This document shows, piece by piece, positions 35,021-38,887 of a DNA stretch of 64,000 nt. The DNA comes from Paecilomyces variotii (taxonomy: Eukaryota). How positions within the stretch are numbered: the stretch's first letter is position 1; each line of letters begins with the position of its first letter. Location of the stretch: assembly GCA_004022145.1 (NCBI GenBank), contig RCNU01000006.1. The stretch is one strand, 5' to 3'. The translations under genes and the position numbers were made by a program. The notes below the pieces were generated by a model. That model was not told where the DNA came from. It did no database searches and was given only the letters and a program-made list of their open reading frames with translations.

Positions 35021-36839
35021 ATGTCACTGGGTGAGAGAGCTTATATATATATATATATTTTGTTTTTCCTTTTTATTCTGACCCTCTTATACTTTCACCA
35101 TTGAGGCAGACAGATCAATTATTTTGTCACATACAGGCAGCAGACGGAGCCGCGGCGCAAGACGAAGGAACCGTGGTAGGGGCAGTGACCATGCCCCATC
35201 ATTTTTGTCTTTTAGCAAGCTAAAGTCTCCAGCACGAGAGAGCTACCTCCAGATAGTCACAGCAGACATGGCGGAATCCACGAGACAAGACGACCTCAAG
35301 GAAAAGAACAGGGCCCTTCAGAAGGACTTCGCCAACCGGACCAGAGAGCCGAGACGTACGCCAGTTCCGATACCACACGATCTCTCATGGCTGTTAGCAG
35401 CAATATCTAAACTCGAGAAGAAAGACGGCCTACAGGTGCAAGCTCCCCTGTCTACCCAGAATGAACATCGAATCCCTGGGTTCTCGCCAACAGCGCACCC
35501 TCGTCGGCTGACCGAAGTTCTCGACTCGCTAGCAACCCTTTTGGTGTCACAACCGAAGCATGAGGTTTTTGCCATCGGTTTACGACCCAGAGGAAGTGAC
35601 CAGAAGCTTGAGTTATTCCTGTCTGGTAATACGCAAATACAGAGCACCACACGCAAGCATCTGAGAGACATCTGGGATTTCATGAAGAGATTATCGGACT
35701 GCTATTATGCTGTTTATAGAGGCGATCCGACTGATTGCTCACCTAGAAATCCTACTAATGATCCTGTGTTTCGCGAAACAGAAGCTCTGTTCGCTCGCCA
35801 TTGCTTACGATTCACTTGGCGGCGGCTCCAACACATATTCAATTTGAAGTTCAACGACCTCAGGGGGATTTCTCCCGCCACGGTACCACCGGGACACCCT
35901 TTTCATTCTGTCCGACGTGCGATTATTCGTGTCGTGGGTGTCTTCTTGCGGGAACAGAATCCCGCATACGGAATGCCAGCAGATGACGACAGGGACGGTT
36001 GGCGTATGCTTCGCATATGTCTGCTTGATGCTCGTAATGCAATCCGGAAATTCCTCGATGAAAGTGGTTTCCAGGGACTTCATATAAACATCGCTCTTCC
36101 CTTCGCGAAGCTGGAAGACTACCTTCGCAAAATCGCCTCTCACTATAATAGTTACGAGATCTTGGTCAAGGCCGCTGTTTCGCTAAGTTGTCGGCCTCTC
36201 TTCACGTTCACAACATCAGTCATGGACCTTCCTGAATCGTCTGCTAGCTTACCTCAGCGCCCCCAGAAACCTGAAGACTGGGAGGCCGTGTTGGAAGATG
36301 CCCTGGGATGGTACAATGAAGAGAATAAGCGCAACAATACTTTGACCCGAGTCATGAACATTGAGGTCATAGCCAAAGACACCGCTTTTATGGCCAAACA
36401 GGATATGTCGAGGACAGCTGTCGTCCATTGCGAAGTCAAGCTATTGGCCGCCATCGAAAGCGAGCAGAGAGAGAATCCTGGACTGCCTAAGGCATACACG
36501 TACATCGGGATGTCAAAACTGTCCTGTACCGGCTGCGATAGCTTCTTCCGTGCATTTAATACCGTTCATAATACGACTTGGACAACAAGAGGAAGCCATG
36601 GAAAGTCATATTACCCATGGATGTTCCCAGAAACGGTGCCGAAACGAGAGGATGTCCTCAAAGCCACGTACTACAACGTCGTCTCTCGGTGGGTCACATC
36701 ATACAAGGGTTATGTTCCTCAGTTTGTGCCGAGGGCGCAATCAGCCCGCAGTACGGGGGTTCTCGGTGATCTGGATGATGAAATTGATGATGTTGTTAGT
36801 TATTTGAAGAACAGGTTGAAACCAGAAGATCTACGATAG
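35021..36839 (+). CDS. OTT_1508-like nucleic acid deaminase, copy 1 (probable 10-nt first exon 35021-35030; alternative start ATG 35268)
   Basis: VVHCEVKLL (36426) and YIGMSKLSCTGC (36501-36536), then TRGSHGKSYYPWMFP; N-terminal VLDSLATLLVS...EVFAIGL typical of fungal members. Confidence 0.85.
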
Positions 36840-37423
36840 ATCGGCCTGTACCAGTGCATTTCCGGATGCTTTTCCTTTTCTGTCTTTTCTTTCCTTCTTT
36901 CCTCGTTTCCATCTCTTGCAATGGTTTACGCAACGCTATTCAGATTGTGGGAATTGGAAATCCTTAATCATAATATTTCTCAGAAGAGGTTTCGGTGGTT
37001 ATCACATTAGAAAGTCTCCGCAGTTAATAGATTTTACTTCTTGCTACAAGCTTCCAATGTTGTAAAGAGAAAACCCGGGCAACATGGCCTTCATTTATCA
37101 CTGTAAATTCATTCTTATTGACCCGGCTAAGGTACCAAAATTATCATATAAACTAGCCCTCATAGGGAATATCAAGATGACACTCCAATGTCGTGAGAGA
37201 GTGCTAAGACAACCTTAGATATTAGACTTTGGAGTGAAGAAATCATAGAAGTGCTGCCTATCGGGAACCGGATTCACCCCTGCCAGTCATGATGTAGTTA
37301 GTTCTCAAGTCTTGCCGTCATAACAAGCAAGGCCGCACTGTCTCTGTTGTGCTAAAAAACAGAAAGAAAGAAAAGAAAAGAAACACAGCAACTCCATGCG
37401 GACCAAAGACACAGTCAACAGCT

Positions 37424-38887
37424 ATGGGGAGCAACATTAGAGAAGCAGAACTCAAAATCTCACCAACTGCTGAACGCATCACGGAGCTCCTCGCAGCGAT
37501 TTCCAAGTTGCAGAATCATTACCATGAATTTTACCAAGGCCAGCTGGGTGTCCCCTCGTCTCTTCCAGGCGACTATCCTCACGCTACATCGACGATCCTC
37601 GATGCCCTTGCAGATCTGTCAGTATCACAGGGACGGCCCGATTCAATCGCGCTCGCACTCAGAATAAATCGAAACACGCAGTCCGTCGACATTATTGCCT
37701 CCAAAAACCAAGATGTACCACCAGATGCGGTCGTGCATTTACATCAGATATGGTATTTCCTGAGACGGCTTTCGAATCGCTACTGGACAATCCACCCGCA
37801 TGGTACGGGAGAGACCATAGGTGATCGGGAATTTCGAGATGTCTCCCTTCAATTTGCCGATAACTGCGTCAAGTTCTCTTCTAAAAGGTTGAAAGAGATC
37901 ATCAATTCGAGGTTCTTGGACGTAATCGACGTCTCAGCAGATATTCTGGACCCCGATCACGCCTTCTATGGCTTCCGAGACAGTATCCGCGCAGTTCAAC
38001 ACATGTTATCTCGGGACGAAAATACATTTCATGATGAAGATTGGAGATTGCTTTTCTTCTGTCTTCGAGAAGTTGAAAAAGCAACAGACCGGCTGTACAA
38101 GTCAGATGGGCTGCTACAAAACCACCGTAAGCTACGGTCATTAGTGTATACGGGATGGCTGAGCAGGGTCACTTCTGTATGGACAAGCTACGATAACCTG
38201 ATGAAAGCCACTGTCTCGCCTGTGTTTCATGATTTATTCAGTCTCGAGCTGAACATCCACGCACTATTACCAGAGACAGGGAAGCTGTCGAGTGTTGCTC
38301 AAAGCGCGAAGCAATGGGAAGATGTTCTGGAAGCGGCTTTGGCGTATAACAATGAGTACGGCGATCCCAGATATACTCCGAGTGGCGTCCTAGATCTGAA
38401 TAGGATAGAAGCGGATACTATATACATGGCCCAAGAAGGAGTTCCACGAGAGATCGTGGTCCACGCTGAGACAAAGCTGTTAGCAGCGATAGAGAAGACC
38501 CAACAGGAGCAACCAGAATTACCCAAAGCATTCGCCTATATTAGTACCACAGAGTTTCCTTGTCATGGATGTGATTGTTTTTCGAGGGCCTTCAATATAA
38601 CCCACGGGACGTCCTGGAAGACCAAGCGAGGTTATGGCGCTGCATGTCCGTCATGGATGTTTCCTTCCGTGCTGTCAACGAGAGATGATGTTCTCAAGGC
38701 CACATACAATATGATCGCTACTGATTGGGCTGCATATTACAGAGGATATCTTCCCAGGCCCGCGTCATCATATTCCGACTCTCCGCCACAGCCACCACGT
38801 GGAGGGGATGTTCTTGACTTCTATGAGGAGGAGGCTGCAGATATTATGGCGAAGATGACAGAACTGAGAAGGGACATGGAAAATTAG
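37424..38887 (+). CDS. OTT_1508-like nucleic acid deaminase, copy 2 (diverged tandem paralogue)
   Basis: VVHAETKLLAAIE (38462) and YISTTEFPCHGC (to 38572); colinear similarity with copy 1 (LLAAISKL, ILDALADLSVS, HLHQIWYFLRRLS, WEDVLEAAL, LPKAFAYI, WMFP, RDDVLKATY). Confidence 0.82.
   Translation: MGSNIREAELKISPTAERITELLAAISKLQNHYHEFYQGQLGVPSSLPGDYPHATSTILDALADLSVSQGRPDSIALALRINRNTQSVDIIASKNQDVPPDAVVHLHQIWYFLRRLSNRYWTIHPHGTGETIGDREFRDVSLQFADNCVKFSSKRLKEIINSRFLDVIDVSADILDPDHAFYGFRDSIRAVQHMLSRDENTFHDEDWRLLFFCLREVEKATDRLYKSDGLLQNHRKLRSLVYTGWLSRVTSVWTSYDNLMKATVSPVFHDLFSLELNIHALLPETGKLSSVAQSAKQWEDVLEAALAYNNEYGDPRYTPSGVLDLNRIEADTIYMAQEGVPREIVVHAETKLLAAIEKTQQEQPELPKAFAYISTTEFPCHGCDCFSRAFNITHGTSWKTKRGYGAACPSWMFPSVLSTRDDVLKATYNMIATDWAAYYRGYLPRPASSYSDSPPQPPRGGDVLDFYEEEAADIMAKMTELRRDMEN

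Follow-up and report, generated by a model that had tools for sequence, protein, structure and literature searches.

A tandem pair of OTT_1508-type deaminase genes in Paecilomyces variotii, with a deep allele split and no ZAO-like gene nearby

Functional work on fungal deaminases of the OTT_1508 clade has so far been confined to the OLD-ZAO system of Neurospora, for which Honda et al., 2025 is said to be the primary study. The present analysis concerns two adjacent genes of this kind, gene 1 and gene 2, at positions 35,021-38,887 of a 64,000-nucleotide stretch of Paecilomyces variotii DNA (assembly GCA_004022145.1, contig RCNU01000006.1), here called the window. In Neurospora, OLD-1 and OLD-2 edit mRNA from adenosine to inosine (A-to-I), and each OLD deaminase adjoins a zinc-finger gene, ZAO, in which a premature UAG is edited to UIG upon virus infection (PMC12754623); this account, which an earlier note on the window had given, is in print as it was described there. 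The system also occurs in Eurotiomycetes, OLD-1 edits further sites beyond its own neighbour, and activation of OLD-ZAO leads to severe growth defects in Neurospora (PMC12754623). The Fusarium homologue CHE1 is described as having three C2H2 fingers (PMC11169179), and a statement in PMC13327615 gives the generality of the mechanism across fungi as unknown.

The literature searches turned up 8 papers mentioning OTT_1508, and none deals with Paecilomyces. What is already known is the family and its one published mode of action; the genes themselves are annotated as hypothetical proteins. The explanation that we favour, with belief and doubt about evenly balanced, is that the two are maintained, fast-evolving zinc deaminases of the OLD type that lack a linked ZAO gene, act on nucleic-acid (probably RNA) targets elsewhere and have a role in conflict.

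The deaminase gene pair

The features of the pair, by position in the window, are as follows.

35021-35030, + strand: candidate first exon of gene 1, 10 nt, with an ATG at 35021
35031-35136, + strand: candidate intron of gene 1, 106 nt, GTGAGA...ACAG (GT..AG), holding a (TA)n microsatellite
35137-35267, + strand: RG-rich (arginine-glycine) leader of gene 1, in frame and 5' of the annotated ATG, SRRSRGARRRNRGRG...
35268-36839, + strand: gene 1, ATG-to-stop open reading frame (ORF) of 523 amino acids (aa), an allele of haplogroup A (see below), reading as a canonical OTT_1508-like deaminase
36426-36536, + strand: active-site block of gene 1, H387-C-E389 ... GMSKLSC420-T-G-C423
36840-37423, no strand: spacer between the genes, 584 bp, without a listed ORF of at least 80 aa
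37424-38887, + strand: gene 2, ATG-to-stop ORF of 487 aa, reading as a divergent OTT_1508-like paralogue
38462-38572, + strand: active-site block of gene 2, H347-A-E349 ... ISTTEFPC380-H-G-C383, with the tetrad kept and GxSK lost

The two proteins are colinear paralogues with 33% identity over 466 aa (E 3e-84), so the earlier note's description of two co-oriented, intact paralogous ORFs holds. So does its assignment to the OTT_1508-like deaminases: the Pfam hidden Markov model PF14441 (OTT_1508_deam), with a gathering score of 27 bits, matches gene 1 at 61.5 bits (E 7e-17, residues 386-454) and gene 2, in a marginal pass, at 29.3 bits (E 9e-7, residues 346-415). The motifs that it quoted, HCE...SKLSCTGC and HAE...FPCHGC, are present in the two active-site blocks, and the six frames of the window contain just two matches to H-x-E...C-x-x-C, one per gene.

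Residues H387, E389, C420 and C423 (gene 1 numbering) are the same in all 22 family members aligned, six of which have RG-rich N-termini, and the zinc-binding and catalytic tetrad H-x-E...C-x-x-C is invariant in all 25 sequences of a second alignment, the gene 2 residues being H347, E349, C380 and C383. A profile search through 1.84 billion cluster representatives returned 1884 of them at E<=1e-3, 720 at E<=1e-10 and 138 at E<=1e-30. Because many of these matches span profile positions ~60-450, nearly the full length, the whole architecture is common to the family. Eight of ten distant full-length matches that were looked up bear names (Tuber (4), Choiromyces, Tirmania, Hypsizygus and Paracoccidioides), and 28 of 30 feature matches in the ESM Atlas are PF14441 clusters. 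A profile search against PDB sequences gave only a chance-level match, to STAT3 (E 0.044).

Iyer et al., 2011 (PMC3239186) list for the OTT_1508 clade a GxxK before the CxxC and a loop formed by a polar residue (usually H) and aromatic-xx-P, and mention a helical insert carried by its fungal members. Gene 1 has GMSK...C, HGKSYYPW and, in its predicted model, the fungal helical insert, and to judge from these features is a canonical member of the family; that it is canonical and has relatives with RG-rich tails is new here. For family membership the evidence of sequence may be called decisive, and that of fold weak. The AlphaFold2 (AF2) models are confident, with a predicted local distance difference test score (pLDDT) of 83.6 and a predicted template modelling score (pTM) of 0.82 for gene 1, and of 81.2 and 0.79 for gene 2, with the same order of secondary-structure elements in both. 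The common predicted topology comprises an N-terminal helix and beta-hairpin, ~200 residues of helices, and strand-helix units with the HxE and the CxxC; strands are predicted at 101-120 in gene 1 and 76-93 in gene 2, after which come ~200 aa of helices and then the other strands and helices.

The earlier note had started gene 1 at 35021 and made it about 570 aa long. A workable model of this kind exists, since 35021-35030 joined to 35137-36839 gives an open frame of 570 codons with an RG-rich N-terminus; the public annotation of the identical protein (P0179) is the 523-aa form. The stop-to-stop frame of gene 1 is open from 35082, its leader (SRRSRGARRRNRGRG) aligns with the RG/RGG-rich N-termini of four related proteins (P0002, P0003, P0006 and P0011), and the start Met of the 587-aa alleles of gene 1 is matched in the alignment by an in-frame TTG codon at 35124. 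For gene 2 the reading frame is open from 37298, and the protein is identical to a database protein (P0192). Four sequencing runs were examined, all as assembled contigs, and none has a contig joint for or against the 570-aa splice. The (TA)n microsatellite (35040-35058), at which the contigs of all runs break, falls within gene 1, in its putative 5' intron or leader.

Absence of a ZAO-like neighbour

ZAO, the neighbour that defines an OLD-ZAO module, is absent from the 64 kb window, and the pair is not a demonstrable module of that kind. Regular-expression scans of all six frames gave a single canonical C2H2 match, which lies out of frame within SF3b1, and none of the Zn2Cys6 type; looser zinc-finger patterns over 20-48 kb gave five matches, none of them credible (three hold stops, another is the SF3b1 match again, and the fifth, of 19 aa, stands isolated before Ldh_2).

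Seven frames in the window are bridged by one or two TAG codons. Two of these run antisense to known genes. Pfam was applied to three of the other five, all but the two shortest (14955-15566 and 54260-54940), and showed no real target among the three; apart from the kinase gene below, the candidates were dismissed as antisense or as lacking a domain. The only one of the three that is continuous across its TAG, a kinase gene at 14865-16925 (+ strand), was rejected as a TAG-split target, the TAG being the 3' splice site of a canonical 49-nt intron in the kinase domain (~15095-15143, GTGAGA...CTAAT...TTAG), where the in-frame TAG mimics a premature stop.

Seventeen metagenomic loci that encode relatives of the deaminases were also inspected, with C2H2, Zn2Cys6 and a second deaminase each found in 0 of the 17. 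The flanks in ten of these loci have 69 listed ORFs of at least 140 aa; ten of them, from five loci, were tested by Pfam, and they showed no recurrent domain and no zinc finger, the matches (in five of the ten) being to SNF2, Helicase_C, PARP, DUF7025 and DUF3433. One locus (L003:4546-12856) places a relative of the deaminase near SNF2/Helicase_C and PARP genes, a defence-like arrangement that was not seen in the other four loci tested.

In a genuine OLD-ZAO system with an unlinked target, virus infection would lead one deaminase or both to correct the premature UAG of a C2H2 transcription-factor gene, resembling ZAO or CHE1, at another place in the genome. The PF14441 family is common to both systems, and the occurrence of OLD-ZAO in Eurotiomycetes, together with the editing by OLD-1 beyond its own neighbour (PMC12754623), would allow such an arrangement; however, the window has neither a C2H2 array nor a real TAG-split gene and the loci of the relatives are 0 for 17 in C2H2 motifs, and we think it improbable that the pair works in this way.

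Allele groups of gene 1

The database clusters of P. variotii gene 1 split into two groups, A and B, and the depth of this split is the most unusual result of the analysis and is new here. Group A has four distinct sequences of 523-528 aa, including the allele of the window, and group B has seven, mostly of 587 aa and with an RG-rich start. The amino-acid identities, with those of the neighbouring Ldh_2 and of a third OTT_1508-like paralogue that lies unlinked, outside the window (P0005, P0198-P0211), are these.

Gene 1, group A versus group B: 72%
Gene 1, within group A: 94-99.8%
Gene 1, within group B: 98.8-100%
Gene 1, group B versus the P. lecythidis orthologue: 86%
Gene 2 alleles: 92-100%
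Alleles of the unlinked paralogue: 88-99.8%
Ldh_2 within P. variotii: 96.9-99.2%
Ldh_2, P. variotii versus P. lecythidis: about 92%

The divergence between A and B is confined to residues 1-420 of gene 1, in which 30-residue blocks are 50-83% identical, against 87-97% for residues 421-523. The alleles of gene 2 do not follow the A and B grouping. A careful maximum-likelihood tree places A outside a group of B, P. lecythidis and the gene 1 orthologue P0004, with an ultrafast bootstrap of 87 and a value of 97 in the Shimodaira-Hasegawa-like approximate likelihood ratio test (SH-aLRT). The Ldh_2 protein P0218 is 98.3% identical to Ldh_2 of P. lecythidis, while P0004 is 80% identical to the gene 1 orthologue of that species; P0218 and P0004 probably lie on one contig, and the contrast hints at a further split in gene 1. 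The motif and the full length are kept, barring annotation variants, in all 13 gene 1-type sequences, all 12 of gene 2 and all 11 of the unlinked paralogue. The old allele groups of gene 1 would fit balancing or diversifying selection, or introgression.

Old allele groups that cross species are a feature of het-like loci, and they are present at gene 1. The pair could accordingly be pictured as an allorecognition locus, or one resembling a toxin-antidote system, in which the deaminase would be an effector of cell death or incompatibility, the old alleles would define non-self and gene 2 would be a degenerate modulator. Deep haplogroups within one species that branch across species are what such a locus might have, as is a divergence limited to residues 1-420 with 87-97% identity beyond; bacterial OTT_1508 deaminases are polymorphic toxins according to Iyer et al. 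(PMC3239186), and the growth of Neurospora is severely impaired when OLD-ZAO is activated (PMC12754623). Yet Pfam finds PF14441 only in both proteins at E<=0.1, with no HET, NLR or other known incompatibility domain, and the alleles of gene 2 are not sorted by the gene 1 haplogroups; we think this explanation improbable.

Divergence of gene 2

Where the family has IGVSKLSC gene 2 has ISTTEFPC, with STTE in place of GxSK, and where the family has HGKSYYPW it has YGAACPSW. All 12 sequences of its two clusters carry these replacements and keep the H, E, C and C; the loop and the GxxK that Table 1 of Iyer et al., 2011 gives for the clade are both missing from gene 2. That it keeps the zinc-binding and catalytic residues yet has lost two signature motifs of the family is new here. 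A quick tree gives gene 2 a stem branch of 1.25 changes per site and puts it with the clade of the unlinked paralogue (SH-aLRT 96), away from gene 1, a placement that the long branch makes uncertain. On the strength of this clustering, though the branch is very long, a recent tandem duplication was set aside as the simple account of the pair. The relatives of high identity that were found for gene 2 are all P. variotii sequences.

Gene 2 may be a paralogue peculiar to this lineage whose specificity has changed, or else a pseudo-enzyme with a regulatory role. The earlier note had spoken of two enzymes, which agrees with the intact tetrad in both proteins; with GxSK and HGKSYYPW gone, gene 2 may be non-catalytic or of changed specificity, and for this gene the description may go too far.

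Proposed function

We propose that gene 1 is an active, canonical enzyme that would deaminate RNA, presumably from A to I, and whose targets other parts of the genome would encode. Gene 2 would share the work beside it, either as a re-targeted enzyme or as a regulatory pseudo-enzyme, and the role of both would lie in genetic conflict, whether in antiviral or anti-element defence or in the recognition of self and non-self. RNA is the likely substrate because relatives have RG/RGG tails and because OLD-1 and OLD-2 edit mRNA from A to I; a conflict role is suggested because the allele groups of gene 1 are old and both genes are far more polymorphic than Ldh_2.

A more specific version, to which we give little credence as it stands, takes the pair as a ZAO-independent OLD locus that serves as an immune or non-self module under balanced polymorphism. 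In it, gene 1 would be an RNA deaminase in which balancing selection maintains ancient allele groups in the parts that face the substrate, and gene 2, a lineage-specific deaminase either re-targeted or reduced to a pseudo-enzyme, would control or complement it. If true, fungal OTT_1508 deaminases would have a second mode of action, wired differently from the first.

Several points weigh against reading the pair as OLD-type deaminases that work on RNA in genetic conflict. The gene that defines the described system is lacking from the window, where even the looser patterns yield no credible zinc finger, and Iyer et al., 2011 (PMC3239186) predicted for the clade the deamination of cytosine, not adenosine. 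The approximately unbiased (AU) test rejects monophyly of A and B (p-AU 0.021), but the group was named for this test after the quick tree had been seen, which weakens it. The unlinked paralogue is also polymorphic, at 88-99.8%; high variability may perhaps be a property of the whole family in P. variotii, and part of it may be relaxed constraint and not selection.

The predicted structures speak on both sides. Foldseek found nothing among solved structures at E<=1e-3. When the models were compared with 48,161 chains by VIA-align, the matches (Z 4.0-7.2) all fell in the range that the tool calls 'middling': 9c63_A, a cytidine deaminase toxin of the Pseudomonas type VI secretion system (gene 1, Z 6.5, 106 residues aligned, root-mean-square deviation 3.7; gene 2, Z 6.9), 3oj6_A, blasticidin S deaminase (gene 1, Z 6.5, 102 aligned, deviation 4.7; gene 2, Z 7.2), and CDADC1 (Z 4.0). 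That 9c63_A and 3oj6_A, both solved deaminases, come up for the models of both genes, in alignments that bridge the ~200-aa helical insert, counts in favour of the reading.

The last point against it is expression. One of the four runs, whose RNA nature is a guess, bears the label of the same species. It contains short contigs that match the window exactly over the end of gene 1 (36472-36845, depth 5-6), over 34475-35028 and, for gene 2, in the bin 38208-38674, and its depth at the ubiquitin-conjugating enzyme gene is 95; this is a weak hint of low-level transcription of the pair. Two metatranscriptome runs, which may hold DNA, cover gene 2 at 90-95% identity. They have almost no cover over ~32.6-36.3 kb and cover both sides of it at 90-95% identity, a pattern that a divergent allele segment could explain, though missing cover is not evidence. 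Contig joints inside either ORF were absent from all four runs, and, as the strains differ, the runs give no usable A-to-G signal.

With expression not firmly in evidence, with high polymorphism in all three paralogues examined and with a family as large as 1884 representatives, the pair might be thought functionless, the drifting products of a lineage-specific family expansion. Against this, all 36 allelic sequences checked retain intact frames and an intact catalytic tetrad despite divergence of up to 28%, and synteny is kept across species; we hold drift to be quite unlikely. Were the pair ordinary drifting paralogues, the finding would be one of routine annotation.

The locus shows that members of the family can be retained without a zinc-finger partner, as a deaminase pair with allele patterns of the conflict type, and it could serve to test RNA editing in trans and a part in defence or self-recognition. 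P. variotii is described as genetically tractable, with both transformation and crossing (PMC6300479), and many sequenced strains carry one or the other allele group of gene 1.

Genomic context

The neighbours that bear on the pair are these.

34334-34672, + strand: weak relic of a retroelement aspartic protease (Asp_protease_2, E 0.007; gag-asp_proteas, E 0.01; both below the Pfam cut-offs)
39313-40386, + strand: Ldh_2, malate/L-lactate dehydrogenase (PF02615, E 1e-132), a conserved syntenic neighbour

Downstream of the pair lie intact core genes for Ldh_2, DUF3455, SF3b1, a FAD-binding enzyme and the 49-kDa complex I subunit (Complex1_49kDa); upstream, at 24-27 kb, are genes for a kinase and a ubiquitin-conjugating enzyme. 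The region between, ~27.5-35.0 kb, has no recognisable gene among ten stop-to-stop ORFs of 110-168 aa (27.7-34.8 kb) that were tested by Pfam: eight had no match, one a negligible match (E 0.098), and one is the sub-threshold retroelement protease. Genes 1 and 2 carry consecutive locus tags in nine named strains, in three of which the Ldh_2 tag is directly next to that of gene 2; in P. lecythidis, Ldh_2 and the orthologue of gene 1 are two locus tags apart. The closest homologous proteins are those of P. variotii, followed by P. lecythidis. GC content around the locus is an ordinary 0.47-0.49, neither AT-rich nor like what repeat-induced point mutation (RIP) leaves. Because the search for repeats around the locus gave only a poly-C tract, without inverted repeats, there is no sign of a mobile-element boundary.

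The earlier note had placed the pair in a decayed accessory island. Given the intact core genes downstream and the synteny across strains and species, that view is not supported: the locus is a syntenic chromosomal site beside a gene-poor stretch. The further statement that both genes are intact while those around them are broken is right for the pair and wrong for its downstream neighbours, and the presence of the pair in other strains, which the note had raised, is borne out in at least nine sequenced ones.

The context also bears on whether the proteins are DNA cytosine deaminases, mutators of transposons or foreign DNA, which we consider very improbable: Iyer et al., 2011 (PMC3239186) group the clade with AID/APOBEC-like enzymes and suggest cytosine deamination, a retroelement relic lies directly upstream of gene 1 and RIP is described as active in the species (PMC6300479), but the only characterised fungal members edit RNA from A to I, RG-rich tails favour RNA, and the GC content of 0.47-0.49 lacks an AT-rich, RIP-like composition.

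Some other features of the window may be recorded. Long poly-C tracts lie at 29841-29889 and 32093-32123, with about 30 C at 29851-29881; the former reads as poly-proline in one frame, within a 151-aa ORF without Pfam support. Over 27900-32400, where no recognisable gene was found, contigs of the two metatranscriptome runs reach a depth of up to ~110 and are 90-95% identical, showing numerous indels and loose ends; a diverged repeat, carried-over DNA or non-coding transcription in a relative could account for them. A piece of an Exo_endo_phos ORF at 17379-18080 (- strand; E 2e-6) is followed by an in-frame TAG and 80 codons without a domain, and may be either an ordinary gene with an intron or a relic like a long interspersed nuclear element (LINE).

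Comparison with known systems

The nearest described counterparts are OLD-1 and OLD-2 of Neurospora, which likewise have the PF14441 domain with HxE...CxxC, are two paralogous deaminases in one genome and are apparently fast-evolving. Each Neurospora OLD gene is paired with a C2H2 ZAO gene holding a premature UAG, whereas here deaminase adjoins deaminase and no such gene occurs within 64 kb. Within the OTT_1508 clade as drawn by Iyer et al., 2011, gene 1 is at home, having the GxxK before the CxxC, the polar and aromatic-xx-P loop and the fungal helical insert; gene 2 departs from it, with STTE for GxSK, YGAACPSW for HGKSYYPW and a bare pass of the Pfam cut-off.

Like Tad2/Tad3 (ADAT2/3), a heterodimeric adenosine deaminase of a different deaminase clade, genes 1 and 2 comprise a canonical protein of the deaminase fold and its degenerate paralogue; unlike Tad3, which lost the catalytic Glu, gene 2 keeps it. 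Fungal het and other allorecognition loci are similar in their deep allele groups within a species that cross species boundaries and in the sharp localisation of the divergence, but the pair differs from them in having no HET, NLR or other known incompatibility domain. What sets the pair apart from what is in print is its wiring, two deaminases side by side and without ZAO, together with a second copy that is degenerate and the ancient split between the alleles of gene 1.

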